This document shows, in pieces, positions 2-64,000 of a stretch of DNA of 64,000 nucleotides. The notes below the pieces were generated by a model, which was not told the origin of the DNA, searched no databases, and worked only from the letters and a program-made list of their open reading frames with translations. The stretch comes from a virus (lineage: Duplodnaviria > Caudoviricetes), in the IMG/VR virus record IMGVR_UViG_3300028832_000114, positions 40,465 to 104,464 of that record; one strand, 5' to 3'. How positions within the stretch are numbered: position 1 is the stretch's first letter; every line of letters begins with the position of its first letter. The position numbers and the translations under genes were made by a program.

Positions 2-721
2 CAAACAATGATGTTAGCGTTCTTATCAAATGTTAATGAAGCACATATTATATATAATAAATATGAGAACGATGAATTTGAACGCGTTATGCATGCGGCA
101 AATCTTATTAAAAACTCACCGCTTCATATAAAGAGATTACCTGACTTCAGTTTGCAAGATATTGAAAATGCAATAAAATATGGTATTCACGAATGGGGTA
201 TTAGATATGTATTCTTTGATTATCTACATACATCATTAAAAATCTTAGGTGAAGTATCATCTAAGGCAGGAATAAAGGGTTTAAGAGAAGATAATGTTCT
301 CTTTATGATAGCAATAAGATTAAAAGATTTGTGTAATGAATATGGTGTCTTTATTATGACATCAACACAGTTAAATGCAGAGTATACAACAGCACAACAA
401 TATGACCAAAACTTATTGCGTGGTGCAAAATCTATTGCAGATAAGATTGACTACGGTGCGATTATGCTACAAACTAGTCAAGAAGATAAAGAGGCATTAA
501 AGCCAATATTAGTTAAGCAAGGCTTCCCTGAACCAATTATTAAAATGTCTGTTTATAAGAATAGACGAGGACAATATAAAGACATATTATTATGGTGTAA
601 AGCAGATAGGGGTACTTGTAGAATAGAACCTATGTTTGCTACAACATATCAATATGAACTTGTTGATTTACCTGATTTAAAAATTAAGATAAATCCTAGT
701 ATGTCAGCAAGTGCATTTTAG
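2..721 (+). CDS. dnaB: Replicative DnaB-like helicase, C-terminal part (5' truncated by window)
   Basis: Motifs YVFFDYLH, TSTQLN, LRGAKSIADKID and VYKNRRG; directly upstream of the primase; ends TAG. Confidence 0.85.
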   Translation, partial: QTMMLAFLSNVNEAHIIYNKYENDEFERVMHAANLIKNSPLHIKRLPDFSLQDIENAIKYGIHEWGIRYVFFDYLHTSLKILGEVSSKAGIKGLREDNVLFMIAIRLKDLCNEYGVFIMTSTQLNAEYTTAQQYDQNLLRGAKSIADKIDYGAIMLQTSQEDKEALKPILVKQGFPEPIIKMSVYKNRRGQYKDILLWCKADRGTCRIEPMFATTYQYELVDLPDLKIKINPSMSASAF

Positions 722-738
722 GAAAGGAGAGTGCGGCA

Positions 739-1839
739 ATGGATGATAAAGAACAATTAGAGCAAATAAAAAATAATTTATCTATTGACCAGATATTTGA
801 TTTGCTTATATCTTTAGGTGCGGATCCTGTACTTAAAGATGATATAATCATGTGCCGTACAATCTGTCATGGCGGTGATAGTCATAAATTATACTATTAT
901 GATAACACAAAACTATTCCGCTGTTATACAGAATGTAGTGATACCTTCGATGTATTTCAACTCGTGGTTAAAGTACAATCGACCGGCGGCCGCACATTCT
1001 CATTACCGAAAGCTGTCAACTATATAATTAATTATTTTAATTTAAGCGTAGAAACTAAAAATTTTCCTGATGATAAGGATAAACTATCTGATTGGCAAAT
1101 TTTATACAGGTATGGCAAAAATTTAAAAGAAGAGGATAGCGAAAGAAAAATTGAGATAAAGTTTTATGATGATAAGATTTTATCATTCTTACCGCGTCCC
1201 CGCATTTTACCATGGGAGGCTGAAGGGATTAGTAAGGAAGTTATGAATTATCATAATATATGTTATAACCCTTCGTCTCAAGCAATAGTAATTCCTCACT
1301 ATGATGTTGAGGGTAGATTAGTGGGAATCAGAGAAAGAACTCTTATAAAAGAGAATGAGATCTATGGTAAATATAGACCTATGTATTTGAATAAACAAAT
1401 GTATAATCACCCGCTAGGATTTAATCTATATAATCTTAATTATAGTAAAGAAAATATAAAGCAAACTAAAAAAGCAATTATATTTGAAGGTGAAAAAAGT
1501 TGTTTATTATTTCCTAGTTATTTTGGACAAGAGAATGATATATCTGTGGCTGTATGCGGCAGCTCGTTATCTAGTTATCAAGTTCAACTATTATTAGATT
1601 TAGGAATTGAAGAAATGATTATTGCTTTTGATAAACAGTTTCAACAACTTGGTGACAAAGAGCATCAAGGTTGGGTTAAAAAATTAAAAGATATTAATAA
1701 AAAATATAGTAAATATATAAAAATTAGTTATATTTTTGACAAAGAAAATCTTTTAGGTTATAAGGATTCTCCTATCGACCGAGGTAAGGAGGTATTCTTA
1801 GAATTATTTAATAAAAGATTTAGTTTGGAGGAGGAATAA
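739..1839 (+). CDS. dnaG: DNA primase (Zn-binding N-terminus plus TOPRIM)
   Basis: CRTICH...CYTEC Zn motif, IIFEGEKS and IAFDK TOPRIM motifs; GGAG RBS. Confidence 0.85.
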   Translation: MDDKEQLEQIKNNLSIDQIFDLLISLGADPVLKDDIIMCRTICHGGDSHKLYYYDNTKLFRCYTECSDTFDVFQLVVKVQSTGGRTFSLPKAVNYIINYFNLSVETKNFPDDKDKLSDWQILYRYGKNLKEEDSERKIEIKFYDDKILSFLPRPRILPWEAEGISKEVMNYHNICYNPSSQAIVIPHYDVEGRLVGIRERTLIKENEIYGKYRPMYLNKQMYNHPLGFNLYNLNYSKENIKQTKKAIIFEGEKSCLLFPSYFGQENDISVAVCGSSLSSYQVQLLLDLGIEEMIIAFDKQFQQLGDKEHQGWVKKLKDINKKYSKYIKISYIFDKENLLGYKDSPIDRGKEVFLELFNKRFSLEEE

Positions 1840-1843
1840 AAAT

Positions 1844-2053
1844 ATGAACGATAAACTCGAGTTATGAATAAAAACTTGAGACAACCCTACGTTTACGTTC
1901 TTTGGTTGAGTAACCGAGGCGGGACAATATTCCGCTTTAAGTCAGCTTGATGAAAATCAAGTTAAAGAAGCTATTATTATAGCTCGTGGAGCCAACGACC
2001 AAATACGTATGGTTAATTATCGAGACTATGAAAACAAAGGCAAGGTGAGATAA
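1844..2053 (+). CDS. Hypothetical 69-aa protein (3 in-frame TGA=Trp)
   Basis: GGAGGA RBS; with TGA=W reads MNDKLELWIKTWDNPTFTFFGW...KGKVR-TAA and fills the dnaG-recJ gap. Confidence 0.7.
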
Positions 2054-2054
2054 A

Positions 2055-3860
2055 ATGAAATATAAATTAATTAAAGAAGTCGATCCAGCCCTAAGTCCTA
2101 TTCAGCAAATATTGTTGAATAGGGGTATTAAGTTAAGTGATATGCATCATTACTTAAATACAACAGACGCAGATATTTTGGACGCGGAGATGCTCGGTTC
2201 TGAGAGCATCAAAGCGGCCGCTGCCGCATTAATTTTAGCGATAAATAATAATTCAAAAACATTAGTATTGGTAGATTGCGATTGCGATGGTTATACATCT
2301 GCCGCAATACTTATAAATTACTTATATGATTTATTCCCTACTTTTGTAACAAATAATTTAAAATATTATTTACACGAAGATAAAACACATGGTTTATCAG
2401 ATTGTATAGATTATATAGAAAAAAATGATTTTAAATTAATTATTATCCCTGATGCTGCAAGTAATGATTATGAGTATCATCACAAACTAAAAGAAGAGGG
2501 TCGTACAATTATTATTCTAGACCACCATGAAGCACCAATGGTATCTAAAGATGCTATTGTGCTTAATAATCAATTATCAAATTATCCAAATAAACAATTA
2601 TCAGGAGCTGGTGTCGTATGGCAGTTTTGTCGTTATTTAGATAAGATACGTGGTGGACATACAGCAGATGAATATATAGATTTAGCCGCATTAGGAAATT
2701 GCGGCGACATGATGAGTTTACGCTCAATCGAGACTAAACATATTATAACCAAGGGTTTCCGCAACGAAAATATAAAGAACCCATTTATATATGGTATGGC
2801 TGAAAAGAACGCATACTCATTAGGAAATAAAATAACCCCAATAGGTGCAGCATTTTATATAGTTCCTTTTGTTAACTCAATGGTTAGAAGTGGAACTCTT
2901 GAAGAAAAAGAAATCTTATTTAAATCAATGCTTAAAAACGAAGCATTTAAAATGATATTATCTAATAAGCGTGGACATAAATTAGGTGAAGAAGAAAAAT
3001 TAGTTGACCAAGCGTTAAGAACTGCGACCAATGTAAAAAGTCGTCAAACAAGAGAACAAGATAAAGGTATGGCTTTAGTAGAAGAGCAGATAGAAAAAAA
3101 TAATATGATGCAACATAAAGTATTAATTTTCTTATTAGAACCAGGACAAATTGATCCTAATATTGCGGGATTGATAGCTAATAAAATAATGGCTAAATAT
3201 CAAAGACCCGTATTAATGCTAACAAAAGTAAAAGTATTAAATCAAAATATGATATTAACATCTAATCCACCACAACCTTATTATGATACTTATTACAGGG
3301 GTAGTGCGCGTGGATACTCTAAATCAGGAATTGAAAATTTTAAAGATATATGTCAAGAAACCGGTTTGGTAGAATACGCAGAAGGACATCAAAATGCTTT
3401 TGGTATTAGTATTTTATCATCTTATATTGATAGGTTTATAGAATTAACAGATGAAGCATTAAAAGATTTACAAAGCGAACCTTTATATTATGTTGATTAT
3501 ATTTTCAAAGGGGTTGATGTTCAACCCAATACAATTTTAGATATAGCCAATCTAAGTGATATATGGGGACAAGATATGGATGAAAGTTTAATTTGTATTG
3601 AAAACTTAAAGGTTGTAAAAGAAAATTTAACTTTGATGAGTCCTGATAAAAAGCCAACATTGAAAATAACTTTACCAAATAAGATTAGTTTAATTAAGTT
3701 TGGTAGTTCACAAGAAGAATATGATAAATTATTAACAGATGGATATATAGAATTAAATGTCGTGGGTAAATGTAATGCAAACGAATGAATGGGAAATATT
3801 ACACCACAAATACTTATTGAAGATTATGAAGTTATAGGACAAAGTAAATATAATTTTTAG
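2055..3860 (+). CDS. recJ: RecJ-like single-stranded DNA exonuclease (DHH family)
   Basis: DCDCDG, LDHH, RGSARG and GHQNAFG motifs; TGA at 3786 falls in the C-terminal N-E-W-x-G motif; true stop TAG at 3858-3860. Confidence 0.9.
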
Positions 3861-3889
3861 TTGATAAATATTTAAAAATATAATATAAT
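3861..3889 (+). promoter_or_regulatory. Sigma70/SigA-type promoter
   Basis: TTGATA-N17-TATAAT upstream of the helicase gene. Confidence 0.75.
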
Positions 3890-3912
3890 ATAAATGAAAG
3901 TGAGGGCAGCAG

Positions 3913-5115
3913 ATGATTCAATTAAACGATAAACAACTTGAAGGTTTAAATCTTGCAGTAGCCAGATATAGAGATGGTGAAAAGACTACTATTATATCAG
4001 GTTATGCGGGAACTGGAAAGTCAACCTTAGTTAAATTTATTATTGCCGCCCTAAATAATGACGGTATTGATCCAGATAAAGATGTTGTATATACATCGTT
4101 CACTGGTAAAGCAACTCAAGTATTACAAAAAAAAGGAAATAAAAATGTTAGTACATTGCACAAACTATTATATGAGTATTTTCCTAGAGCAGATGGCACA
4201 TTCTTTAGGAAACCAGTATTAGATATACCATATAAAATTGTTATTGTAGATGAATGTAGTATGGTGCCTAAAGAATTATTAATGCAACTTGCAAAATATA
4301 AAGTTCATATAATTTGTTTAGGAGATCCAGGCCAATTGCCGCCAATAAATAAAGATGAAGATAATCATTTACTTGACAATCCACACGTATTTCTAAATGA
4401 GATTATGCGTCAAGAAGAACAAAGTGAAATAATAAAACTTACTATGGATGTCAGAGCAGGAAAACCTTTAAATCATTTTATTGGAAAAGAAGTTCAAATA
4501 TTAGATAAAGATGAGCTTACAACAGGTATGTTAATGTGGGCAGACCAAATTATTTGTTCTACCAATGCAACAAGAATAGCATTAAATAAACAAATGAGGG
4601 CTTTATTAGGTCGCTGTGATAATCCTGAAGATGGAGATAAAGTAATTTGTCTTCGTAATTATTGAGATATATTAAGCGAAGATAAATCACCACTTGTAAA
4701 TGGAACAATTGGAACATTAAAAAATAGTTTTGAAAGTTTCTTTAAATTACCTGGATATATTACAAATTATAGAATATCACAGATACCAACTGTTCTTGCA
4801 ACTTTTGCATCAGATGATGGTATAACTACATTTAATAATTTAACAATGGATAAAAAAATGATTTTAGAGGGTGAACCAACATTAACTTCTAAAGAAAATT
4901 TTAAATTAAGTAAAAATAAAAAATATGTAAATAGTATTCCATTAAGTTTTACTTATGGATATGCCATTACTTGCCACAAAGCACAAGGTAGTGAATGGGA
5001 TAATGTACTTGTTATTGAAGAAGGCTTTCCTTTTGATAAACAAGAACATATTAAATGATTATATACAGCCGCAACTAGGGCTGCTAAAAAACTAGTTATA
5101 ATAAGAAAGATATAG
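3913..5115 (+). CDS. RecD/Dda-like SF1B helicase (2 in-frame TGA=Trp)
   Basis: GYAGTGKS Walker A, VDECSM, GDPGQLPP, YAITCHKAQGSEW, and K-W(TGA)-LYTAATRA motif VI; joins ORFs 3913-4665 and 4846-5058 in one frame. Confidence 0.9.
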
Positions 5116-5127
5116 GAGGAATAATTA

Positions 5128-5418
5128 ATGAATAATAAGTATACAGTGCAAGGAGTTATGAATGACAGATGAGTTATTTGGTATAAAGATTTAAAGAAAA
5201 AAGGTAATAAAATAGGTGTTTATAAAATAATTGATTTAAATGATGGCAAAAAGACAGCAAGATTTGCAGTAAGATATAAACCAAGAGAGAATCAAACTCA
5301 AGAAGTTTCAGATTCATTAATTATATCTAACTGTATTGCAAATTTTTATAAACATTCTTACACAAATCCAAGAGTAAGATCTAGGGGCGGAAGACGCAGT
5401 TCATTCGTTTCAGGATAG
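5128..5418 (+). CDS. Hypothetical 96-aa basic protein (1 TGA)
   Basis: GGAGGA RBS; open with TGA=W to TAG at 5416-5418. Confidence 0.65.
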
Positions 5419-5426
5419 GCGGCCGC

Positions 5427-5894
5427 ATGAAACTTAGGTTATCTTACTTTTATCAAATAAGAAATTTTAAACCTAATATGATACCAATGTCAACTGCAAT
5501 GTCAGATCCAGCCTGGTATCATGATTTTAAAGACTCAACTCATATCTTCACAGATAAACGAGGAATATTAAATGGACTTAGGTTACTCCCTATTATAGTT
5601 CAAAATGCAAATGGTGAAGTTCACTGTCCATGCGAACATAGAGATGCAACTAGATGTCCACTAGCTCATGATTATGAGGCGGCTCTTGAAAAAGTAGACC
5701 TCCCTAAATTAATGAAAGGCGTAAAATCATTTTGTGATGATTACTGCCAACAAAATAAAATTAAAGAAGAGCCTATTGCAGTATTAATGGTATATGAAGC
5801 ACCTAATAATCCTTGCAGTGAAAGATATAGTTTATTAAAATATTTTAATTCACACGGAATTGAATGTAAAGAACTAGACTACCCTATAGAGTAG
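5427..5894 (+). CDS. Hypothetical protein, DUF488-like
   Basis: N-terminal SYF and C-terminal LMVYE..NNPCSER resemble the DUF488 LxCxE...CHR motif. Confidence 0.45.
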   Translation: MKLRLSYFYQIRNFKPNMIPMSTAMSDPAWYHDFKDSTHIFTDKRGILNGLRLLPIIVQNANGEVHCPCEHRDATRCPLAHDYEAALEKVDLPKLMKGVKSFCDDYCQQNKIKEEPIAVLMVYEAPNNPCSERYSLLKYFNSHGIECKELDYPIE

Positions 5895-5899
5895 TCTAT

Positions 5900-5930
5900 T
5901 TGATTTTTATTTAATTTTTTAGTATAATAT
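5900..5930 (+). promoter_or_regulatory. Possible SigA-type promoter for dnaE
   Basis: TTGATT, then TATATAAT starting 17 nt later. Confidence 0.5.
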
Positions 5931-5960
5931 AAATATATAGGTATGAAAGGAAGGGAAGAT

Positions 5961-8900
5961 ATGAGTAATAGATTTGAAGTTCATAGTCATACAATGTATA
6001 GTAATTTAAGACTTTTAGATAGTATTAACCGTCCGAAAGATTTAATTAATAAAGCAATTGAATTAGGATTAGCTGGTATAGCAATCACAGATCATGAGTG
6101 TATAAGTTCTCATCCTGAAATAAATTTTTATCAAACAGAAGTTCAAAAAGAACATCCTGATTTTAAAATAGCATTAGGAAATGAAATATATTTAACTGAC
6201 ACAAGAGATAGTGGTCAAAGATATTATCACTTTATTTTAATAGCAAAAAATAAAATAGGTCATCGCGCATTAAGAGAATTATCTTCAAGAGCGTGGATGA
6301 ATAGTTATTGGAATCGAGGTCTTGAACGTGTTCCAACATTAAAAGATGATTTAGAAGAAATATTAAAAAAGTATCCGAATAGTTTAATTGGAACAACAGC
6401 ATGTTTAGGTGGGGAATTAAGTATTAATACATTAGAATTAATAAAATGTGAAAAAACTAATGATAAAGATGGTGCGGCAGTTGCACATAATAATATAGTA
6501 AAATTTTTGTTATGGTGCAAAAATGTATTTGGAGATAATAATTTTTATATTGAATGTGCTCCTGGTACAAGTCGTGAACAAATCTTAGTTAATAAAAGAT
6601 TTCCCGCAATTGCAAAAGCATTTGGATTAAAAATGGTTATTGGAACAGATGCACATTATCTTAAAAAAGAAGATAGATATGTTCATAAAGCATATCTTAA
6701 TAGTAAGTTTGGAGAGCGTGAAGTAGATGAGTTCTATGAATTTGCATATCTTCAAAATAACGAAGAAATAATAGAACATTTAAAAGCATCTGATTTTAGT
6801 AATGAATTTATAGATGAAATGTTTCAAAATAGTTATGAAATATATGCAAAGATAGAAAATTATAATTTAGCTCATGCGCAAACAATCCCTCATGTTGAAG
6901 TAGAAGATTATCCTATTATAGAGATTGAATCAGAAGAATTTTTAGATAAGTATCCAGTTTTATCTGATATGTTTCAATCAAATGATCAAATAGAAAGATA
7001 TTGGGTAAACAAATGTTCAAATAAATTAAGAAAATTGGGTTTAAGAAATGAAACTTATCTAAGTAGATTAGAAGAAGAGGCGGATATTAAAAGAACAATT
7101 AGTGAAAAATTAGGAACTAATATGTTTGCATATCCAGTTACACTTCAACATTATGTAGATTTATTTTGGAATTGTGGAAGTATAGTAGGAGCTGGTCGTG
7201 GTTCAAGTTGTTCAGGTTTAAATCATTATTTATTAGGTATAACTCAACTTGATCCGATACAATGGAATCTTCCATTCTGGAGATATTTAAATAAAGAGCG
7301 TGTTGAGTTAGGTGATATAGATTTAGATTTATGTCCAAGTAAGCGTCCTAAGATTTTAAATGAAATTAAAAAAGAAAGAGGACAAAATTTTAAGGCGGAA
7401 ATAGATGATTTAAGTAGAAAGAATCTTGGTTGTACATTAATAGCAACATTTGGTACAGAGGGTACAAGATCAACAATATTAACTGCATGTCGTGGTTATA
7501 GGAATGAAGAGTATCCAGATGGTATAGATGTTGATACAGCACAATATTTATCATCATTAATCCCAAGTGAACGTGGGTTCTTATGGCCGCTTAATGATGT
7601 TATTAATGGTGATGAAGAAAAAGGTAGAAAGCCAATTAAAACATTTATAAATGAAGTAAATATGTTTCCTGGATTATTAGATATAATGTCTGGTATTGAA
7701 GGTTTAGTAAATAAAAGAAGTAGTCATGCTTCAGGAGTTATCTTATTTGATGAAGATCCATATGAGTTTGGTGCATTTATGAGAACTCCAAAAGGAGAAA
7801 TTATCACAGCGTATGATTTGCATATGTGTGAAGCATGTGGTATGACGAAATATGACTTCTTAGTAACAGAAGTTCAAGATAAATTAACAGAAGCAATTAA
7901 AATGTTGCAAGATTATGGAGAAATTGAAAGTGATTTAACATTAAGAGAAGTATATGATAAATATTTTCACCCAAATGTTCTTCCTATTGAAGATAATAAA
8001 TATTGGAAAGTATTGCAAGATAATAGTGTTTTAAATATCTTTCAGTTTGATAGTGATGTTGGAGGTCAAGCCGCAAAAAAGATTAAGCCAACAAATATAA
8101 TGGAAATGGCGGATGCAAATGGTTTGATGAGATTAATGACTGCGGAAAAAGGTCAAGAAACTCCAATGGAAAAATATATAAGATTTAAGAATAATATAAA
8201 TTTATGGTATAGAGAAATGGACTCATATGGTCTAACAAAAGAAGAACAAAAAGTATTAGAGCCATATTTTAAGAGTTCACATGGTGTTCCTCCAAGCCAA
8301 GAGCAGTTAATGAGAATGTTAATGGATGAAAAGATTTGTAACTTTACTCTTGCGGAAGCGAATGCCGCACGTAAGATAGTTGGTAAGAAACAAATGAATA
8401 AGATCCCCGCATTAAGACAACAGGTATTAGATCAAGCGTCAAGTCCATGTATGGGTAATTATATATGGAAGTGTGGTGTTGGTCCGCAGATGGGATATTC
8501 ATTTAGTATCATTCACGCGTTAGCATATAGTTTCATTGGTTTTCAAACAATGTATATAGCGACAAGATGGAATCCGATATATTGGAACACAGCGTGTTTA
8601 ATAGTTAATAGCGGAAGTCTTGAAGAAGATAGTGATTTTGAAGAAGACGAGGATGGATATATAGTTGAGAAAAAAGAAAAATCAACAGATTATAGTAAAA
8701 TAGCAAAAGCGTTAGGAGATATAATTAATAAAGGAATTAAAGTTAGTTTAGTTGATATAAATAGGTCAGATTATAGTTTTCAACCAGATGTAGATAATAA
8801 TGAAATATTATTTGGTATGAAAGCATTAAATAATGTTGGCGGTCCGATTATTGAACAAATAAAAGCAAGTCGTCCTTATGCGGGAATCGCAGATTTTATG

Positions 8901-9914
8901 GCAAAGTGTCCGTTGAATAAGAGTGCAATGATTAGTTTAATTAAGGCGGGTGCATTTGATAAAGTAGATAGAGATAATGCGGCGGCCGCAGGTGTAGAAC
9001 CACGAATCTGGACAATGGTATATTATTTAAGTAAGGTTTGTGAAGCAAAGAAAAGATTAACCTTACAAAACTTTAATGGTCTATTGCAACACGAACTTAT
9101 TCCTCAAGAATTAGATTTTCAAAAAAGAACTTTTGTATTTAATAAATATTTAAAAGCAAATCAAAAAGTTGGAAAATATTATGTATTTAATCCATCTTGC
9201 GAAGAGTTTTATAATAAGTTTTTTGATGCTGACCAGTTAGAAGTAATAAATGGTTTAACTTGTATTCTTCAAACAAGATGGGATAAGATTTATCAAGATG
9301 TTATGGCGGAAGCCCGCACATGGTTACAAGAACATCAAGAAGAAATGTTAAAGAAATTTAATATGATATTATTTAAAGAATATTGGGATAAATATGCACA
9401 AGGAAATATTTCTGCGTGGGAAATGGAATCATTATGTTTCTATTATCATGAACACGAGTTAGCACATGTTAATACATATAAATATGGAATTGCAAATTTC
9501 TTTGATTTGCCAACAGAACCTCCTATTGATTCAATGTTTAAGAGAAATGGTAAAGACATTCCAATCTATCAAACATTTAAAATAATAGGAACAGTAATTA
9601 ATAAAAATGATGTAAAAAGTTCAATCACAATATTAACGACAAAAGGTATCGTAACTGTCAAATTTACAAAAGAATATTATGCAATGTATAATCGTCAGTT
9701 AAGCGAAATCCAAGAAGATGGAACAAAAAAGATAACTGAAAAAGGTTGGTTCACAAGAGGAACAAAAGTTATGATAACTGGGTTTAGAAGAGATGATATG
9801 TTTGTTGCAAAAAGTTATACAAAAACACAAACACATCAATTATATAAAATATTAGAAGTAGATGGCGGCAATATGAAACTCGAACATGAAAGAAAAACAG
9901 CCGCAGAAGAATAG
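5961..9914 (+). CDS. dnaE: DNA polymerase III alpha subunit (family C, PHP domain)
   Basis: HSHTMYS/AITDH PHP motifs, GRGSS, DIDLD, SHASGV and YSFSIIHA; start placed at the GGAAG RBS; no TGA codons. Confidence 0.95.
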   Translation: MSNRFEVHSHTMYSNLRLLDSINRPKDLINKAIELGLAGIAITDHECISSHPEINFYQTEVQKEHPDFKIALGNEIYLTDTRDSGQRYYHFILIAKNKIGHRALRELSSRAWMNSYWNRGLERVPTLKDDLEEILKKYPNSLIGTTACLGGELSINTLELIKCEKTNDKDGAAVAHNNIVKFLLWCKNVFGDNNFYIECAPGTSREQILVNKRFPAIAKAFGLKMVIGTDAHYLKKEDRYVHKAYLNSKFGEREVDEFYEFAYLQNNEEIIEHLKASDFSNEFIDEMFQNSYEIYAKIENYNLAHAQTIPHVEVEDYPIIEIESEEFLDKYPVLSDMFQSNDQIERYWVNKCSNKLRKLGLRNETYLSRLEEEADIKRTISEKLGTNMFAYPVTLQHYVDLFWNCGSIVGAGRGSSCSGLNHYLLGITQLDPIQWNLPFWRYLNKERVELGDIDLDLCPSKRPKILNEIKKERGQNFKAEIDDLSRKNLGCTLIATFGTEGTRSTILTACRGYRNEEYPDGIDVDTAQYLSSLIPSERGFLWPLNDVINGDEEKGRKPIKTFINEVNMFPGLLDIMSGIEGLVNKRSSHASGVILFDEDPYEFGAFMRTPKGEIITAYDLHMCEACGMTKYDFLVTEVQDKLTEAIKMLQDYGEIESDLTLREVYDKYFHPNVLPIEDNKYWKVLQDNSVLNIFQFDSDVGGQAAKKIKPTNIMEMADANGLMRLMTAEKGQETPMEKYIRFKNNINLWYREMDSYGLTKEEQKVLEPYFKSSHGVPPSQEQLMRMLMDEKICNFTLAEANAARKIVGKKQMNKIPALRQQVLDQASSPCMGNYIWKCGVGPQMGYSFSIIHALAYSFIGFQTMYIATRWNPIYWNTACLIVNSGSLEEDSDFEEDEDGYIVEKKEKSTDYSKIAKALGDIINKGIKVSLVDINRSDYSFQPDVDNNEILFGMKALNNVGGPIIEQIKASRPYAGIADFMAKCPLNKSAMISLIKAGAFDKVDRDNAAAAGVEPRIWTMVYYLSKVCEAKKRLTLQNFNGLLQHELIPQELDFQKRTFVFNKYLKANQKVGKYYVFNPSCEEFYNKFFDADQLEVINGLTCILQTRWDKIYQDVMAEARTWLQEHQEEMLKKFNMILFKEYWDKYAQGNISAWEMESLCFYYHEHELAHVNTYKYGIANFFDLPTEPPIDSMFKRNGKDIPIYQTFKIIGTVINKNDVKSSITILTTKGIVTVKFTKEYYAMYNRQLSEIQEDGTKKITEKGWFTRGTKVMITGFRRDDMFVAKSYTKTQTHQLYKILEVDGGNMKLEHERKTAAEE

Positions 9915-9922
9915 GAGAATAT

Positions 9923-10276
9923 ATGAAAAAAATAATTGAACATGGTTTTATGAGTTATATGGAAACTACCTGTCCATACTGCGGTTGTAAGTTTTCATTT
10001 GAATGGGAAGATGTAATTAGCCCAACATGAGGTCCTACTTGAAGATATGATAATACAAATATTACAGTTAGTGGTTGTTGTATTACTACAGGAACGGCTC
10101 AAAATTATGAAATTTTCTGCCCTGAATGCAAAAGAAAATTTCCTATTTTAAACTGGTCTTTCTCATATCCTAGAGGTAATTGTCCTTTTACTTATAGTGG
10201 AGAATGGAAAAATACATCTGTAACAAAATGTGACACAGAATGTACGTGTCATAAGTGTTCAGACAAAAATGATTAA
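9923..10276 (+). CDS. Cys-rich zinc-ribbon protein (2 TGA)
   Basis: GGAG RBS; CPYC...CPEC pair plus C-terminal CxxxCxCxxC; open only with TGA=W. Confidence 0.7.
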
Positions 10277-10350
10277 TCATATTAAGCAAAAATTAAAATT
10301 GTCATAGAGGTTAAAATCCTTGAAATAATTTAAATACTAAGGAGGAGACT

Positions 10351-13250: not shown

Positions 13251-13255
13251 AAGGT

Positions 13256-13299
13256 AAGGAGGTAAGTTATAATTTATTAAAATAGCTTACCTCCTTTTT
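13256..13299 (+). terminator. Rho-independent terminator
   Basis: AAGGAGGTAAGTTAT / ATAGCTTACCTCCTT stem followed by a T-run. Confidence 0.75.
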
Positions 13300-13320
13300 C
13301 TTATTTTTCAGGGGGTAATC

Positions 13321-14253: not shown

Positions 14254-14258
14254 TTTTT

Positions 14259-51309: not shown

Positions 51310-51344
51310 TGAAACACTCTCCTTTTCTCTCTTCTTTTATTCTT

Positions 51345-51392
51345 CTAAAATAATATAAAAAATTATTAAATTATATTTTCTTTATTGGGCCA
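51345..51392 (-). promoter_or_regulatory. Putative phage late promoter
   Basis: TGGCCCAATA...TTTTTTATATTA. Confidence 0.55.
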
Positions 51393-51395
51393 AAT

Positions 51396-51434
51396 AAAAA
51401 AAATAGGTAGTTATTATTTTAACTACCTATTTTC
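51396..51434 (-). terminator. Terminator overlapping the tape measure stop
   Basis: AAATAGGTAGTTA / TAACTACCTATTT plus T-run. Confidence 0.75.
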
Positions 51435-54400: not shown

Positions 54401-57400
54401 TATATTTATCTACTAATGCATTATATTCAGCTTCTGCAGCATCTAATGCTTCTTTATAATTAGAAACTGTTTTATCACTGTTAAACACAACACCCCGTGC
54501 AGCTAATTTTTTAGCTAACTCATCTTGTTCGCCCTCAGCAATTTTTAATTTTTTAGTATAATTATTAACTTGAGTATTTAATAAACTCCATTGTTGATTT
54601 AAATTTTTTAATAAATTACCACCAACAAGTTTATTTTGTTGAGATTCTAATTTTTTTAATGAATTATCAATTTTTGTAATCTGAGTATTAATTTTATGAT
54701 ATCTATCTACTTCATCATCTATATGTTTTTCTTTTTTAGGTTTTGATTTTGATCCGCCGCCAGATTTTCCTTTTCCTGTGTCTGTTGGTGGTTTATATTT
54801 AAAATTACCAACATTTGCACCTTTAAACTTAGTATTACCAGCATTAATTACAGGAATATTGATTTGTCCCTGAACATCTGTAGTTGCTTTATTAGTAAAT
54901 GTTTTTGTTTCTCCTGTCGTTGGGTCTGTATATTGGTATGTTGCGGTTTCAGAGTTAACCTCAGTAAGAGTTGCTGGAACCGTATCAATTGTAGGATTAT
55001 AACCAATACCAGCTAAAATTTCATTAGCCTGTTCTTTAGTAATATCAAAATTTCTTAATAAAATATTTAATTTTTCTGCTAGTTGTGGATCAATTTCAGT
55101 TCCAATTTGTATCTTTTCAAGATCTAATCCCTGAATATAATTTACCAAATCATTAACTTCATTTGGTAATTTATCTTTTCAATCTGTTTTTAAATTAACA
55201 ATAAAATCTTTTGTTGCAGCTTTTTGTAAATCATCTAAAACCTTTATATCACCACTTGCTAATTTTTGTATTTCTTTTAAATGATCTCTAACAAAATCTT
55301 CTGATATATCTTTTCCTAAAATATCTTTTACTGCGGTAATAGCTTTACCAACCTGTTCCATTTCATCTGGAGTAAGATTTTGTCTTTTTTGTCATTTCTT
55401 AAGACTATCTTCTCCATCTTTTAATGCCGTATTTAAAGTATCTAATTTTTTACTTAATTTATAATGATGTTCTGCTGCGGTAATAGCAAATGAATCATTT
55501 TCTTTTAAAGCTTTGCTATTTTTTATTAATTCTTGAGTATATTTATAAAAACCATTAGCATCAGCTTCAATTTCTTTAGCTTTTGCATTAGATTGAGTTC
55601 TAAAACTTTGATTTTGTAAATCTTTTAATTCTCCAGCTGTACTTGTTTTTGAGCCTTTAATAGCATTAAGAAATTCTTTCATTGATGGAACACCATCAGT
55701 TTCATCAATTTTAATACCCAAATCTTTTAATGATTGTTCTAAATTTTGATCTGCATCAATAATTTCTTTAATTTTATTAATATCTTCAGGAGTTAAGCTA
55801 TCAACATCACGAGATAAAATTTTATCTGCCAAATCAGAATCAATATTGTATTTTTGACTAACTTTTCCTCTTTCTTCATTTGCTCTTGTAATAATTTCTT
55901 CTTGAGAAACAATTTCTTTATCCATTTCTTCAAGAGCTTTTTGTCATCTTTCTATATGATCTGATTGATATAAATCAAATTGTCCTCCTTGTTGTCTATA
56001 CGCAGCAATAGAAGCCGCCATTTCATCTGCGGTATATCGTTGACCATTATATTCATACTGTCTTTCTTCGTCGCCATAGTCAACATTAGTAAATTTTGCT
56101 TGAGAAAATTCTTCTCCTCGAGACTCAAGAAACATTTTCATAAATGTTATTGCGTCTACATCAAACTCTTCACTGATTGTATCGACTCCAGATCTCTCAG
56201 CTTCTCTAACAGTTTCTTGAATCTTTGGTAATTTACCTGCTTGTTCTCCTTGTCATAGTACTGATCCATAGCGACCGCCCTGTTCTTTAACTTTATCTGG
56301 TACTATAATCTTATTAATATTATTAACATTAGTATCTATACTTTTTAAAGTCTGCGCAATATTTTGAAAAGTTCCCTGTTGATCTTTAAGAGTTCTTTCT
56401 ATAGTCGAAGTATAATAATTTTTATTACTTCCACCATTTTCATTAGCATATTTTTCTGCAATTTGAGAAACTAAAGCTTCATAATCTTTTTTAGATAAAC
56501 CTGTTTGTCCTAATTTTCTTTGCTCTTCTTCAGTAAGATACGTTGACCAGATTTTAGTATTAGAATTTCTACTATCATATCCAGTGTTTTTAGATCGTTC
56601 TGCAACAGAGATACGTACAGTTTCTAAAGCTCTTTCTCTATCTTTTCCATATAAAGTTAATTGATTAATATATTTAGCATATTTAGTATTATCTAATGCA
56701 GCTTCTTTTTTTTCTATATATTCATTTAATTTTTCTTCATCAAAAGATAAATAATTTCCAGAACTTTTTATAATACCTTCTATATTTAATAAATCTGGAT
56801 ATTTATCTAAAATAGATTGTACTTCTTCATTAACCTTTTTTAATTGCTCATTCCATTCTGAAGAATAAGTAATACATCCATCTAAAGTATTTTTAGCATC
56901 TTTGAAAGAATCCCAAGATTGTTTTAAATCATTTAATGAAGTCGCTAATTCATCTGCGCTTTTAGTTAAATTTTCTTGTGCCTGTTGTAAAGTTTTATAT
57001 TCTCGTTCATTCTTTGTTACGGATTGATAAATTGCATAAGCAGCAACACCAATCGCTGCGCCAATAGCAATATATGGAGCTAATGCCAATAACGTTTGTC
57101 CTATTGCTGCTGTTAAACCTTTAAATGTTGCAGCAGTACTAATATTAGCTGTAGTTAATTTTCCTTGTGAAGCTGCATATTCAACATTCGTAACAACACC
57201 ATTTTGTTTTACTTTATTATTAAGCGCAACCGCCGCAGTTTCTTTTGCTTTTGTTTTTGCTGCCTTTTTTGCTGCCGCTTCTTCAATATAATAATTAACC
57301 GCTATTTTTTTTGCAGTATCAGCAATAACACCAATATTTTCTTTAATTAATTTCATGCTATTGCCAAACATAGCTATACTTGTTGCTAAAGCACTTATAA

Positions 57401-60065
57401 TTTGAATTATTTTTTCTCCTGCAGATAAACTATCATTTTTAAAAATGTTTCAAATATTTACAAAAGAATTTAAAGCAGTTGAAGCTTGTCCAACAGCAGA
57501 CGCTAATTTTACTCATTGTTCAGTATTAATCGTTTGTTTTGCTACATCAACAGCCCCTTTAATTTTTTGACTTGTATTATCTATATCATTATTTAATTTC
57601 TTTGTTGCTTTTTCATGTTCTTTACTTGCACTTTCTGAAATTTTTTGAGTAGCAGTATTAATTTGTTGTTGAGCTTTGCTTGTTGCATCTTTTAAATCTT
57701 TAACTAAAGGATCATAAAATCCAGTAGTAATATTTTTATTAAAACTAGTTCTAGCTTTTTTATTTGATGAGCTTTTAACTTTATAAATATAATTAGCTTC
57801 ATTACTCAATTGTTCTCTTAAAGCTTTAACTCTATTAAGTATGTTATTTTTTTCTTCTTCTGTTAATGCTCCAGATAAATTATGGGCAAAAGTTTCTGCT
57901 TGATCTGCGGCTGCTAGCATATTTTTTCTGATATTTTCAATATCATCTTTCATGACATCGCCCTTATTTTTTGCTTCTCCTGTTTGTTTATCTTTTTGTC
58001 ATTTTTTTGAGCCTCAGTTTTCTTTTTTTGTATCATAATCTTCTTGCATTCTTTTTTGAGCTTTTTCAACAAGAGCTAAATATTGTTCGTATCCACCAAT
58101 AAGTTTATTTTGTTCATCTACAGAACCTTTTATATTTTCAGTTAATTTTTTTTGTGCATTTGCAGCTGCTTCAATAGTTGCATTTTCATCTAAATCTGTT
58201 GCTTTATCTATATTTTGAACACTTTTAATATAATCAACTGCACTATTAAGTTCTTCTTCTTGTTGAGCTCTTTGATTTAAAAGTTCTTCTAATTGAGTTA
58301 TTCATTGTGTAATTTGATTAATAGAATCTTGATCCATTTTTGTCATAACAGATTGAAATTCTGCTATAACATCTTTTAATTCTTTTCACACTGGATCATT
58401 TTGAATATCTTTATTTTCATTTAATAATTTTAAATTGTCAATTGCTGTTTCTGCATCCATTGCAGCTTGTTTTGTCTTTTGTAAATTTCTAATTGTTGTA
58501 GTAAGACCAGTAGCAATTTGATTGCTAAATACTTGAGTTCCAATAGAACCAAGCATTAATAATGCATTTCCGCCACCACCAATACCTTCAACAAAATTAG
58601 ATACTAATTTAACAATATTTGTTAAACTATCTATTAAAGAATTGATACCTTTATTATCAATAAAACTACTCATTAATCGTTCTGTTGCAGTTGATAATTG
58701 AGTTAAATGAGCTTCTGTACTTTCTAAATAAATATCTTGTTGTTTTTGTAAAGTACCAAGTGAACCACTAGCAGTAGAAATATTTGTTTGAACTTTATCT
58801 CAATTATCAAACAATGCTACTAATTGAGTATATTGTCTTGTTCCAGCAACATTTTCTGCCAAAGCAACTTTTTGAGCTTGAGATAATGTTTGTCATTTAG
58901 CACCCATTTCATTCAAAATGGTATCCATTTTCTTTAATTCGCCATATTGATCTTTTATATTAATACCAACTTTTTGTAATGCTTCTGCATAAGTACCTAA
59001 AGTAGTTCCATCTTCTAATGTTTTTCCAAGCTCTAAATCTTGAATACGAGCAAAAATTGTTTTAAATGCAGTACCAACAGTATCTGCGCTTTGACGAGTT
59101 TGAGCAACTACAGTAGCTAATGCGGCAGTAGCATATTCATAACTTAAACCTACTGTTTTAGCTACAGAAGCAAACTTTTCTAACCCCGTTGCGATTTCCT
59201 CAGAACTTGCAGCTGTACTAGCTCCCAATGCAGTAATAACATCGGCGAAATACTCTAATGATTTACTACCAGTATCAAAATTATTTCAAATAGCAGTCAT
59301 GTAATCAGAAACTTCTTGTGCAGATGCTCCTAATACATTAGCCATTTTTACCGTAACTTCTGCTCTTGCACTAGCTTCTTCCGTTCCTAAACCTTGTTGA
59401 AAATAAATTAAAGAAGCTTTTGCAAAATCTAATGTACTTGCTCCTAAAGATTGGGCTGCTCTATTTGCTTGAATTGCAAATTTTTCCATTTCTTGAGCAG
59501 ATTGTCCACTAACAATTCTAATATCATTTAATGCTGAATCTAAATTTTTAGCATAACCTCAAGCTTTTTGAAGAGAACCTGCTAATGTATTATAAACACT
59601 TGATGAAATTCCCCATTGTACAGTATTTTTTAATGATGTCGCCATCTTATCTAATAATTTATGAGATTCTTTCATCTGAATATTCATAGTTGTTAAACCA
59701 GTTGCTAAACTTCTAAATGCAGTTGTTCCTGCTGGACCCAAGCTTGTTAAATCTTTATATAATTTAGTTAAATCTACTCCTTTTAATGACTGACTAAATT
59801 TAGTAATATTAGTTGTTCCTAAGTTAGCGTTAAAAGCTTTTTCTAATGCGGTTTGAACAAGTGCAGCTTCTTTTTGAATTTCAATTAATTCTTTACGAGA
59901 TTGTGCTAATGATTTATTTTTTGACGTATCAAAAGTTGCTTTTTGATATTGTTCTGTTGTCATAGCAGAAATTTCTTGTAAACTCTTTTTTAAAGTTTGT
60001 AAACTTTGATTATCAATAGAAAAACCAACACTATATTCAATTTCTCCATATTTTTGACCAGCCAT
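51423..60065 (-). CDS. Tail tape measure protein, 2,880 aa
   Basis: Fourteen code-11 fragments share one frame, separated by TGA; TP901-like core (TRQSADTVGTAFKTIFARI), long helical heptads, C-terminal YDTGGYTG/LHQKELVLN. Confidence 0.9.
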
Positions 60066-60175
60066 ATCCTTCTTCCTCCTTTTATTTCATAAAAATTATT
60101 CCAAAATAAAAATTCCCTCTTATCTATTTATGATAAAAAGGAATAATCTATTAATCTAATCTACCCATTGTATTT

Positions 60176-60712
60176 TTATTTAATTGGACGACCACCATTA
60201 GAAGCTTTAACAAAATCTAATACATTTTGATATTTAGTTAAATCAAAATTATTCATTATTTCTGTCATTTTTTCAGCCTCAATTGGTAATTCTTTTAATA
60301 AACTAGATACCATACCTGCTGCAGTTGTACTATATTTTAATTCATTTTCAATTTTTTCATTTGTCATTTTTAATAATTCATTATATTCATATTCAGGAAT
60401 TGCCGCAATAATTTCATTAATTAAACCATTGCTTTCCATAGCATCATATAACTTTTCTTCATCTTCTCTTTGCTTCTCAGTAAAAGTAAGATTAGTATAA
60501 AGATAAATTAAATGTAAATGAAAATACATATTCACTTTTAATGGATTATATAATTTTTCTTCTTTTGATTTTTGTAATGTAATATCAACTAAATCAATTT
60601 TATCACTAATTGATAAATATTGCTTAACTTCAATTTTATATTCATTAAATTGAATTTCTTTTATATCTTCTTTTGTTTTTAATTTTAAACTTGAATAAGT
60701 TATTTTACTCAT
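60176..60712 (-). CDS. Probable tail assembly chaperone
   Basis: Directly upstream of the tape measure; GGAGG RBS before MSKIT; IEVKQYL. Confidence 0.5.
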   Translation of the reverse strand: MSKITYSSLKLKTKEDIKEIQFNEYKIEVKQYLSISDKIDLVDITLQKSKEEKLYNPLKVNMYFHLHLIYLYTNLTFTEKQREDEEKLYDAMESNGLINEIIAAIPEYEYNELLKMTNEKIENELKYSTTAAGMVSSLLKELPIEAEKMTEIMNNFDLTKYQNVLDFVKASNGGRPIK

Positions 60713-60903
60713 AACAAATTCCTCCTTTTTTCTCAAACATTATGAGGAAAAAGAAAGTAATAAAATATATAAAACATTTTACACATTTAAAAGATTAAAA
60801 CTAAATCCCTTCAAATTCATTATTTTAATGTTTTAAATAATATTTTTATATTTTATTCTTTTTCTTTCTTTAAACTCCTCCTATTATTATTATATTAAAA
60901 TTT

Positions 60904-62295
60904 TTAAAGATTATCAACATTATACGCAACAGATATATTAATTCTATGAATTTGATTTAAAATATTTTCAATACGATATTTACTACCACCATCATTCATT
61001 TCATTTGTTAAATTAGGATTTGTTAATCCTTCTGCATGGGATAATTTAAAACTCTTTTCTCGTAAAGCATCATTCATTAATATTTCTGCAGTATTGATAA
61101 CTTTTAATGTACCAGTTTTACTATCCATTAAAACAAAAACATTAGCAGTATCTGTATTGGTTTTTAACGGATTTCCTTTTACAAATGCATCATAAATTAA
61201 TTCAAAACGCACAGTTTGATCAACATCCTCTTTAAAACCATTGGCTACATGGACCGGTTGTACGGCCGCCGCATGTAAATTAATTCAATGATTAGTATAA
61301 CCAGAATCTAACATTGCCAATAAAGTATAAATAAGTCTTTGTGTTTGTAAATGAATTCCAAATTTTTTTAACCCCTCTCATTTTAAATTATAATTTTTAA
61401 CAGATGCATAAACATCTTCTCCTTTTACTTGTATTTGTACATCAACTTTATCTTGACTAGCACCGATAGAAAAAGTACCATTCTCTGTATCAACATTCTT
61501 TATAAAATTTATTTGAGAAGTGTTTAATCCTTCAAAATTATGCAAAGAGACTGTAATATCGCTCTTTTTTTCACCTTTTACAGCATCTTGTATTGCTTTT
61601 GCTGCCTCACTTTTAGATTTTTGATGAATTCCATCTGCACAACTCGCAACGAAAAATTCTCCAAATTTACCTCTAATAGCACTTTGAGTAGTATTAAAAC
61701 TATATGCTTCAATTTCATCTTGTAATTTACCTAAAGCACTTTTTAAATTTCCACTTTGATAATTTTGAAAATTTCCAAACTTTAAGCTACTATTAAAAAA
61801 ATCTTTATATAATTCTTGCAATTGTTGTGCTTTATTTTCAAAAGTATCTTGTCTCATAGTTTGATTTTCTTGAAAATATTTAATTAATTCTTTAATTTTT
61901 TGTACTTTTTGTTTTCTTTGCGTTAATTCAGCAGTTTTTTCTGTAATACCAGAAAGATTTAAAGAAGGTTGCGCAATATTACCATATAAAAATTTCTTAA
62001 TATTTTCAGTTGAAGTAGTTTCTGCTAATAAATCATATGTATAATCTAAACGTTTTTGCCTTTCAGTGTTTACTATTTGTTTATCTAAATTTTCTTGAAA
62101 ATCACTATTTTCTCGCAATCTCATTTCTAATTGACTAATAGTACTAGTAGAAATAGGTTTAACACTACCTAATCTCTTTTTTTTATAAGCTTCTAATCCC
62201 ATAATATTAAAATCTTGACCTTGTCCATATCTATTAGTTCCATATTTTAAATAGTTTTTTGTTAATAAATGAACATAATCACCTATAGCACTCAT
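60904..62295 (-). CDS. Hypothetical tail-region protein, 463 aa
   Basis: ORFs at 61378 and 60904 join through TGA; KVDVQI...SVKNY resembles a PD-(D/E)xK-like motif. Confidence 0.6.
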
Positions 62296-62322
62296 TTATA
62301 TCACCTATTTTCTCTATAAAAT

Positions 62323-62356
62323 AAAAAAGAGGAGACTATTTTTTTATAGCCTCCTC
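62323..62356 (-). terminator. Terminator after the major tail protein
   Basis: GGCTAT-AAAAA-ATAGTCTCCTC stem plus T-run. Confidence 0.65.
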
Positions 62357-62382
62357 CTTCATATTTAATTTTTATTTTTAAA

Positions 62383-63330
62383 TTAAATTGTAGAACCTGT
62401 GATTTCGCTATCTTCATCAGAATCTTCATTAGAATCGTTATTATTTGTAGGGATAGCAATTTCAGCAGTATGTTTCATAACTGAATCAATTTCTTTTGTA
62501 GCAGCTTCAGAATCTTCAACTACTTGGAATACACATAATACTTTGTGTTTGTTATCAAAATAAGTATATCCAGGGAATGCATCCATAGTGAATGTAAATG
62601 TTGAAGGATCTCCTGTAGATGCCATAGAGAATGTAAAGTTAGATTGAATTTTTACATTTGGTAATGTAATTTCTGCAGGGAAATCTTGTCCAGTAGCTTG
62701 ATCTCTAAATAATGTAGAAGCTTCAACATAATAATATCCACCAAAGTTTTCTGCATCAATTTGTAATTCAGATACATTTAATGAATTTTTAACTACATAG
62801 AAATCAACAAATACAGTTCTTCCTGTATAGTCAGTAGCTCCTTCAATTTTTTTACCATCATCAGCAACTGTTAAGTTTTCAATAATTTCTCCTGTAACAG
62901 AACCATCAGATTCAGTAACTACTACAAATACTGGAGCAGTTCCATCAATCTTTTCATTTGTTCCTAATGCATCTGTTAAATCAATTTTTCCATTTGCATC
63001 AACGTTAGCAGCTGAAGTTGTATGTACATGAACTTCTTGTCCTTCTTTTTTGAATAATCCAGCACCAGATAATACTGAGAATCCAATTGGAGATAATAAA
63101 GCATCTTCAACAGTGAAAGTTAAAGTCTTTTCACCTTCCCATGCGATTAAACGAGTATTTCCTCTACCACCTTGTGCATATACAGTAGTAGCTGCACCTT
63201 CAACAGTAGAAGTCTTTGCTGTATCAATATATAATACTGGTTGTCCAGCTTTAAAAACTGTGTTTCCAATTCTAGTGTCAGCTTTAGCTTTGAAAACTAC
63301 ATTACATATTTCTCTTACACCAAATTTCAT
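62383..63330 (-). CDS. Major tail (tube) protein
   Basis: MKFGVREIC, VYAQGGRGN.RLIAW and SMASTGDPSTFTFTMD; position upstream of the tape measure. Confidence 0.75.
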   Translation of the reverse strand: MKFGVREICNVVFKAKADTRIGNTVFKAGQPVLYIDTAKTSTVEGAATTVYAQGGRGNTRLIAWEGEKTLTFTVEDALLSPIGFSVLSGAGLFKKEGQEVHVHTTSAANVDANGKIDLTDALGTNEKIDGTAPVFVVVTESDGSVTGEIIENLTVADDGKKIEGATDYTGRTVFVDFYVVKNSLNVSELQIDAENFGGYYYVEASTLFRDQATGQDFPAEITLPNVKIQSNFTFSMASTGDPSTFTFTMDAFPGYTYFDNKHKVLCVFQVVEDSEAATKEIDSVMKHTAEIAIPTNNNDSNEDSDEDSEITGSTI

Positions 63331-63407
63331 AATTTTCCTCCTTTATAAATTTTTATTTTTTCCTTTTACCACTTAATAAGAATTGTTAAAAATTCTTATT
63401 TTGTTTA

Positions 63408-64000
63408 TTATCATTTATTATTAGAGTTTTTTAGAACTCCGTTTTCATCAACATTAGAGTGAATATCTTCCATCCAGTCGTCGACTTCTTGTAGATCCTT
63501 TGCACCAGCAAGTTGAGCTTTTAAATGCACATCTCAGCTTATTTTTAATTGATACCTTTTAAACTCATCAAATAATTGATAAGTGGTATAATTAAGCAAA
63601 GAATTCATGTCTTTATTTTCTCCTACTGCAAGAATTGAAACATATCTACTCAAAATAGCAATTTTCTGATTATCCATTCCCTTTGCGGCCGCAAGTTTAG
63701 CTTGTCGGTCACGAAGTTTATCAGCAATTTGTCTTGCCAAGCTTCCAGATGGCTTATAATCAGAACTGCCGCCACCTAAGCAAAGTATTTCATTCAAAGC
63801 TTCAATAAATTTATCATAATTATCTTTATTTAACTCAAAAGTTAAATTATCTTTCTCTTGAGTAAATATAATTTTTAGATTTTCTATATCAATTTGAATT
63901 TGATAAGTAGGAAATAATAGAGATAATACCATTTGGGCACAAGTTTTATTTATTTGTACACTTGGATTTTTTTCTCTCATTATTGACATTATTATTTCAA
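63408..64000 (-). CDS. Tail-region hypothetical protein (5' truncated by window)
   Basis: TYQLFDEFKRY..KISWD..LKAQLAGAK...DWM; ends TGA-TAA. Confidence 0.65.

Follow-up and report, generated by a model that had tools for sequence, protein, structure and literature searches.

Among the known systems built on short DNA words, the AddAB Chi sites of Firmicutes are strand-polar, the Bacillus subtilis word being 5'-AGCGG-3', and the very-short-patch repair carried out by Vsr in Escherichia coli has left words related to the Dcm site over-represented. The DNA uptake sequences (USS/DUS) of the Pasteurellaceae and Neisseriaceae are 9-12 bp long and tied to natural competence, and their accumulation is driven by a protein reader. 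Phage primases also recognize short sites, such as GTC with its flanks in the case of T7 gp4, and among restriction enzymes AciI recognizes CCGC and TauI recognizes GCSGC. Here we describe the enrichment of CCGC and its complement GCGG in a 64,000-nucleotide stretch of phage DNA (the window; 29.3% GC), which corresponds to bases 40465-104464 of the linear 104,464-bp viral contig IMGVR_UViG_3300028832_000114 in IMG/VR. GCGG/CCGC is the most over-represented 4-mer of the window. The completeness of the contig as estimated by CheckV is ~70%, which bounds every gene absence that we report for it.

The + strand of the window has 115 CCGC and 103 GCGG, which comes to 218 words counting both strands (~3.4/kb), against 58.6 expected from a zero-order model (3.7x) or 99.9 from a maximal-order Markov model (2.2x, z=16). 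The enrichment was proposed in an initial annotation made from the letters alone, and most of its counts were reproduced exactly, including the 22 words in the first 3 kb (12 CCGC and 10 GCGG), the recurrence of TGCGG and CCGCA in both arms (n=49 and n=63 in the window), and all six positions of the doublet GCGGCCGC (Table 1). Its estimate that fewer than 0.1 copies of GCGGCCGC would be expected per 64 kb is also correct, as the zero-order expectation at this GC content is ~0.01. The full contig contains 10 copies, where Markov models predict 0.03-0.07 at order 1-2, 0.7 at order 3 (4-mer frequencies), and 5.0 at order 4 (5-mer frequencies). The further statement that CCGG and GCGC are scarce was right for CCGG (0.48x) and wrong for GCGC, which is at 1.23x relative to base composition and low only relative to a Markov model (0.54x).

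As a null for the whole contig, we shuffled synonymous codons within each gene under code 4 (TGA = Trp), which keeps the protein, its dipeptides, and the codon usage of each gene. The initial annotation had raised the prospect that the enrichment would disappear under such a shuffle; it does not, with 343 GCGG/CCGC observed against 156.9±9.9 expected (z=18.8), 135 GCGGC/GCCGC against 42.8 (3.2x), and, within genes, 8 GCGGCCGC against 0.6 (z=9.8). Six of the eight genic GCGGCCGC sites encode runs of Ala using the rare codons GCG and GCC. Codon choices that build the word have odds ratios of 3.3 (GCG|G), 6.3 (GGC|GG), 5.5 (GCC|GC), 6.2 (TCC|GC), 7.5 (CCG|C), 20 (C|CGC), and 5.0 (G|CGG), matched controls being flat, and synonymous choice favours the word in all six combinations of frame and orientation (odds ratios 3-20). 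A coding artefact is ruled out by the synonymous-codon shuffle, by a codon-permutation shuffle, and by these frame-by-frame odds ratios, and the enrichment acts at the DNA level, not on the coding sequence. In all, 27% of the CpGs on the contig are in a CCGC/GCGG context, compared with 4.4% expected. Non-coding DNA has 32 GCGG/CCGC against 9.3±3.1 expected, an excess that is suggestive of the same effect. Upstream of the window, at contig 4399-4623, seven GCGG/CCGC words lie in a GC-rich stretch of non-coding DNA, within a ~900-bp gap that is free of open reading frames (ORFs), and this stretch may be a structured RNA.

Several restriction-type words are avoided on the contig by the same synonymous shuffle (GTAC 0.58x, GATC 0.60x, ACGT 0.46x, CATG 0.77x, and GCWGC 0.65x), which makes it appear that the phage DNA is open to restriction. 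Another under-represented word is AAAAAA/TTTTTT (0.79x). CCGC does not behave as an avoided restriction site, since it is over-represented (2.2x) and not under-represented. It could be argued that the enrichment is secondary, either as a by-product of avoiding other words such as GCWGC and GATC, or from a codon-pair preference, or by mimicry of host oligonucleotides. We consider this very improbable, and it is largely refuted. GCWGC is indeed depleted while GCSGC is enriched, but the gain of 186 GCGG far outweighs the loss of neighbouring words, the relative change is large for the enriched words and small for the depleted ones, GCGG that is not followed by C is still at 1.8x, and the word is enriched in all frames and both orientations.

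The mimicry version of this explanation can be compared with bacterial genomes. The phage SHMT is 67-75% identical to the SHMT of uncultured gut and rumen 'Bacilli/Tenericutes' genomes, and we sampled 401 genomes of this candidate host order, which may not include the true host of the phage. Two genomes with the nearest SHMT do show a GCGG excess of 1.6x in the synonymous shuffle, while a more distant bacterial pool shows none (1.07x). However, GCGGCCGC reaches a maximum of 8 per ~1 Mb in the 401 genomes and is missing from 277 of them, while the phage has 10 in 0.104 Mb (~96/Mb), and the flank preference of the two 1.6x genomes is different, with AGCGG, the variant that the phage leaves unenriched, being dominant. 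The phage signal is not accounted for by mimicry of the genomes sampled here. A search for CRISPR spacers with a 20-kb query against the 401 genomes gave short chance matches only, with no repeat arrays. The genomes with the nearest SHMT (loci L044-L123) are mostly strongly CpG-depleted (observed/expected 0.2-0.5), and many are almost free of GCGC.

Among the ten NCGN contexts, CCGC/GCGG is alone in being above expectation (3.86x), and each of the three-of-four matches is at 0.23-1.03x. Recognition is thus all-or-none across 4-5 bp, which looks like site-specific protein recognition and not like additive neighbour effects. In the synonymous shuffle, seven of the eight single-flank forms (NGCGG and GCGGN) are at 1.5-3.2x (GGCGG 3.1x, TGCGG 2.8x, GCGGC 3.2x, GCGGT 1.5x), the exception being AGCGG/CCGCT, which is not enriched (0.93x), so the full word is BGCGG/CCGCV. 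The word is strongest as GCGGC/GCCGC, as GGCGGC, and as the head-to-head doublet GCGGCCGC, and the highest 6-mers are CGGCCG (7.3x), GGCGGC (6.5x), and GCGGCC (5.9x). Doublets exceed the expectation for independent sites, as in the 10 copies of GCGGCCGC against 0.7 at order 3 and the 7.3x of CGGCCG. A longer hidden motif was rejected, as there is no information past ~5-6 bp and 5-7-mers containing GCGG are at 0.69-1.25x of the Markov expectation from their sub-words. There is no helical periodicity in the spacing of the words, and the excess of overlapping or adjacent doublets is the sole spacing feature.

The word is also close to strand-symmetric. The GCGG:CCGC ratio on the G-rich strand is 1.31, compared with 2.2-2.5 for words of the same composition (expected ~2.2; GGCG 2.46), no arm-specific orientation was seen, and both orientations are found in all three arms. 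On the sense strand CCGC is at 3.15x and GCGG at 1.80x, with similar absolute excesses (99 and 88), and TGCGG and CCGCA number 81 and 86. One of the options in the initial annotation was a Chi-like signal for the RecD/RecJ machinery. Such a signal could tame a host nuclease of the AddAB/RecBCD type or the RecD-like/RecJ-like machinery of the phage, both orientations being used as both ends are exposed. The word is short, GC-rich, and dispersed, and contains GCGG, as does the 5-nt Bacillus Chi, and the phage encodes a RecJ-like nuclease, a superfamily 1 (SF1) helicase, a Sak4-like ATPase, and a RuvC-like resolvase. Against this, the phage word has neither strand polarity nor arm polarity, AGCGG is the only flank variant left unenriched, and control words are more skewed than this one in the two candidate host-order genomes as well, so we regard a Chi-like role as highly unlikely.

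A DnaE search of IMG/VR gave 36 related loci with 64-93% identity, on contigs of up to 144 kb. All 36 carry the signature, at 2.6-5.6x and with 17-38% of their CpGs in a CCGC/GCGG context, and in the relatives that were examined context by context, CCGC/GCGG is the sole CpG context above expectation or one of two together with GCGC. In the subclade of L014, L015, L017, and L037 (~80% DnaE identity), GCGC is also enriched, at 4.5x (0.28x to 2.5x in other members); the 135-kb L037 record yielded no C5 methyltransferase. No GenBank phage is a near relative by DNA, and among cultured phages the closest DnaE proteins are those of SPbeta-like Bacillus phages and of Enterococcus phages (39% identity). 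Enterococcus phage VRE9_3 is syntenic (Sak4, DnaB, a primase-like gene, RecJ, helicase, TK, and DnaE) and has the same GC and CpG levels, but lacks the signature: CCGC is at 0.72x, and the 44 kb examined contain no GCGGCCGC. The signature is clade-specific.

As another explanation, the replisome of the phage (DnaE, primase, RNase H, and ligase) could introduce mutations in a context-dependent way and so produce the enrichment, as a clade-specific genome signature with no site-specific reader. The clade does have a complete replisome of its own: the contig encodes a DnaE-type polymerase, a DnaG-type primase, and a RecJ-like nuclease, along with NrdD and SHMT, and 5' of the window there are gyrase subunits, an NAD-dependent ligase, a DnaB-like helicase, RNase H, and a sigma-70 factor. 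Every member has the signature, it spans the genome, and its sites turn over fast, as would be the case for a mutation bias. On the other hand, such a bias would need four to five specified positions while three-of-four matches give no partial effect, 2.2x over a maximal-order Markov model seems extreme to us for a 4-mer, the homologous and syntenic replication module of VRE9_3 comes without the signature, and the enrichment is 2.6 in the replication arm and 1.9 in the other arms. We think that replisome bias is quite unlikely.

We also considered the genetic code. Reading TGA as sense raises the coding density of the contig from 72% to 95%, and tRNA-Trp(UCA) is among its 24 tRNA genes. In-frame TGA (200) is nearly as frequent as TGG (221), being scarce in replication genes and common in late genes, and there are 27 in-frame TGA within the 2880-aa ORF at 51423-60065. 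The tRNA genes are at contig 11396-22007, upstream of the window, and one of them has a CUA anticodon; ARAGORN also calls a tmRNA. Two of the relatives, L030 and L033, appear to be TAG-recoded, as their coding densities with TAG as sense are 0.96 vs 0.73 and 0.87 vs 0.72, so TGA- and TAG-recoded phages appear to sit side by side in one clade. The signature is shared by the TAG-recoded relatives and by several whose coding density does not differ between codes 11 and 4; it is therefore independent of recoding, and a link to TGA recoding is ruled out. In size, recoding pattern, and habitat, the phage is like the 'Agate' phages of Borges et al. (bioRxiv 10.1101/2021.08.26.457843), a resemblance and not an assignment to that group.

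Individual sites are poorly conserved. Among 23 DnaE sites, most are common to 0-8 of 25 relatives and three to 10-14, and the alternatives are synonymous (GCAG, GCTG). At the 8982 GCGGCCGC site, the GCGG half is kept in 0/21 relatives and the CCGC half (8986) in 4/21. Sites thus turn over quickly at synonymous positions, so it is density and not position that is maintained, and the lack of site conservation rules out a position-specific function. At ~76% nucleotide identity, 27-42% of CCGC/GCGG sites are kept, compared with 0-20% for other CpG 4-mers (3-6x better). Where the neighbours of a 4-fold degenerate site are conserved, the word-completing base is found in 14-21% of GCN|G (controls 6-8%), 13-26% of NCN|GC (2-4%), and 42-67% of GGN|GG (7-9%), an equilibrium frequency that is 3-10x that of control contexts, so the enrichment needs a directional force. 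Retention in the closest pair is modestly higher than in controls (0.76 vs 0.60-0.69), and since losses are only modestly slowed, gains must be raised too under stationarity. The initial annotation had offered positive selection or protection from AT-ward mutation; the 4-fold sites bear out a directional force, while protection alone is insufficient. These dynamics are the pattern expected of weak selection or of biased conversion, and loss protection by itself would not give it.

Biased conversion linked to modification or repair, similar to very-short-patch repair, would work if a site-specific enzyme restored or protected the CpG cytosines in CCGC. A methyltransferase together with a T:G mismatch nuclease or glycosylase, encoded by the host or being a phage protein of an unrecognized family, would resolve T:G intermediates to C:G, and the word would accumulate without having a function of its own. 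The bias is strand-symmetric and all-or-none over 4 bp, as in the specificity of a Type II enzyme, every other CpG context is depleted, and the 4.5x of GCGC in one subclade looks as though the specificity had shifted. Of 13 gains resolved by parsimony, 8 are the two CpG-creating transitions GCAG->GCGG (5) and GTGG->GCGG (3), about twice the background; the numbers are small, and as three-taxon parsimony resolved less than half of the differences, this is weak support only. The contig also encodes a DenV-type glycosylase domain and a GIY-YIG protein. The former is a Pyr_excise domain (T4 endonuclease V-type pyrimidine-dimer glycosylase, E=2.6e-18) in a protein from the upstream 40 kb, an odd function for a phage of a dark, anaerobic habitat, and the latter is at contig 35939-36865, also upstream of the window.

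The genes that conversion would require were not detected. PF00145, PF01555, PF01702, PF03852, PF00303, and PF02511 have no match on this contig, and PF00145, PF01555, and PF01702 have none in four related records that are 80-91% complete. The methyltransferase search that the initial annotation called for therefore came back empty on the contig, which is ~70% complete and may yet encode an enzyme of a new family, and its suggestion of a sequence-specific base modification is not supported, as no C5 or N4/N6 methyltransferase and no TGT/DpdA gene was found on the contig or in the four relatives. Vsr (PF03852) was found neither in the phage nor in four candidate host-order genomes, and just 2/5 candidate host-order genomes have a C5 methyltransferase, one of the genomes with the weak excess being without one. 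The transition neighbour GCAG/CTGC is barely depleted (0.92x, z=-3.2) and GCWGC is at 0.65x, although the shuffle forces some compensation, which complicates reading these words as products of deamination. Conversion also does not predict the doublet excess. We see biased conversion as a real possibility, though an unlikely one.

A cluster of DUF1599, TK, dUTPase, and SHMT genes was examined as a pathway for cytosine modification and set aside. It includes a divergent ThyX-like ORF, and it looks like ordinary dTMP supply because the nearest ESM Atlas neighbours of P0002, a homologue 97% identical to ORF 16728-17351, are viral clusters of the ThyX family (score 0.99). No canonical ThyA or ThyX profile matches anywhere on the contig, even though SHMT, TK, and dUTPase are present. 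ORF 16728-17351 (+) encodes 207 aa with three in-frame TGA and a C-terminal Cys cluster, and has 1193 metagenomic homologues; it has no match in Pfam, PHROG, or PDB, and its predicted fold is poor (predicted local distance difference test score, pLDDT, 56).

Our tentative preference is that CCGC/GCGG is a dispersed recognition word for a sequence-specific DNA protein particular to this clade, that is, a functional site of a factor that the phage encodes. Among the options of the initial annotation, a binding site for a phage protein is the one that we rank first. Four observations point to a sequence-specific protein that acts on duplex DNA: recognition is all-or-none over 4-5 bp, the word is strand-symmetric, doublets are in excess, and the signature is restricted to one clade. 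A putative protein of the phage clade would read BGCGG/CCGCV on duplex DNA. Single sites would be dispensable, and the density would be held 2-4x above expectation by a weak directional force under which gains (GCAG or GTGG to GCGG) come faster and losses more slowly. The strength of this force may be near Ne*s ~1 (effective population size times selection coefficient), a figure that, like the faster gains, depends on an assumption of stationarity and on small counts. A phage-encoded factor would gain from having many sites in either orientation, and it could mark or coat the phage DNA, or load or prime on it. We favour such a factor over a host process, and we infer that a protein reader exists, that it is phage-encoded, and that the force is selection and not biased repair. 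Several ORFs conserved in the clade have no family assignment, and conserved proteins of no assigned function are encoded at window 5427-5894, 14259-14678, and 18511-18963. If the role of the word is in priming, and under that sub-hypothesis alone, the primase (Table 1) could be a candidate reader of CCGC.

Several observations weigh against a phage-encoded reader. Biased repair would leave an identical pattern of gains and losses, and the two bacterial genomes with the nearest SHMT show a GCGG excess as well, if a weaker one, so the host may contribute, although their flank preference differs. The arms of the genome differ just modestly in enrichment, the ratio over the synonymous-shuffle expectation being 2.5-2.8 in the replication arm and 1.4-2.1 in the late arm or elsewhere. 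The non-coding evidence is thin, and non-coding enrichment counts for less because ~10 of the 32 sites belong to coding sequence that had been missed or to a structured, GC-rich stretch.

In a related proposal, CCGC would be the 'self' word of the clade, at which an enzyme or binding protein of an undescribed family writes or reads a mark. The mark could be a modified cytosine or guanine, or else a coat that protects the DNA, and selection would maintain the high density of the word. The density of CCGC/GCGG is ~3.8/kb in the phage and ~0.8/kb in two CpG-poor candidate host-order genomes, a contrast that would distinguish phage DNA from host DNA under this proposal, which we nevertheless consider doubtful.

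Phages are known to avoid short restriction-type words, and a clade that accumulates one while avoiding the usual palindromes implies a DNA-level system that has not been recognized. The clade consists of large, AT-rich, stop-codon-recoded phages of the gut and rumen, an abundant group. Should biased repair be the cause, the clade would add a new case in which a repair system has shaped the signature of a viral genome. The word gives a concrete handle for experiments on modification and on a reader among the conserved proteins of no assigned function.

Table 1. Positions of the enriched words and of the primase gene in the window.
Feature	Position	Strand	Context
Field of 218 dispersed GCGG/CCGC words	1..64000	both	density higher in the replication arm (1-27 kb), lower in the late arm
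GCGG	733..736	+	in the spacer from the ribosome-binding site to the primase ATG at 739; the contig has four sites placed in this way
DnaG-type primase gene	739..1839	+	phrog_47
GCGGCCGC	986..993		in the primase gene, frame 1, Gly-Gly-Arg
GCGGCCGC	2214..2221		in the RecJ-like gene; Ala run with rare codons GCG and GCC
GCGGCCGC	5419..5426		occupies the whole interval from a stop codon to the ATG at 5427; 3' of an AGGA ribosome-binding site
GCGGCCGC	8982..8989		in DnaE, Ala run; preceded by an overlapping GCGG at 8979
GCGGCCGC	18839..18846		in ORF 18511-18963; overlaps CCGCGG
GCGGCCGC	63685..63692		in minus-strand ORF 63408-63989; Ala run

Two further GCGGCCGC sites, at contig 22987 and 25877 (upstream of the window), are followed by ~25 bp of similar sequence; the early and tRNA region may therefore contain a repeated element or small genes that are paralogues. 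Elsewhere in the window, at 20219-26548 (+), there is a cassette with a Polysacc_synt_2/epimerase-type enzyme and several glycosyltransferase domains (GT2, GT1, and GT10-like), within which a 796-aa ORF contains 14 in-frame TGA.

A full-text literature search found no published description of CCGC enrichment in phages, and each of the described systems matches the phage word only in part. The enriched words are the recognition sequences of AciI (CCGC), TauI (GCSGC), and NotI (GCGGCCGC), but phages normally avoid such sites, whereas this phage enriches CCGC yet avoids GATC, GTAC, ACGT, CATG, and GCWGC. Like the uptake sequences, the word is dense in both orientations, mostly genic, and maintained in density while its positions drift; unlike them, it has no information past ~5-6 bp, no core of 9 bp or more, and is found in a phage genome. 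With the Vsr/Dcm words of E. coli, where the cause is biased restoration of C, it shares a strand-symmetric excess of a 4-5-bp methyltransferase-type word and a fast turnover of sites. It differs from these words in that no C5 methyltransferase was found in the phage or the relatives searched and no Vsr in the phage, in its larger excess (2.2x vs the Markov model), and in its barely depleted transition neighbours.

The Chi sites of Firmicutes are similar in being short, GC-rich, dispersed, and over-represented words with a GCGG core, of which single copies are dispensable and which are placed in genes through synonymous codons, but the phage word has no polarity, and the Chi word AGCGG is the one flank variant that is not enriched. 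Phage primase sites are likewise template words of 4-5 nt in which the 3' flank discriminates, a GCGG primer would be made on CCGCV, and the CCGC ratio is the higher one on the sense strand, which is presumed to be the lagging-strand template; the absolute excess, however, is alike in both orientations, and we know of no case of primase sites being enriched genome-wide. Finally, the localized nick sites of T5-like phages (5'-R/GCGCRGG-3'; PMC3517423) also have a GCG-centred word in an AT-rich lytic phage, read by an unidentified phage enzyme, but they are few and on one strand only, while the word described here has hundreds of sites on both strands.

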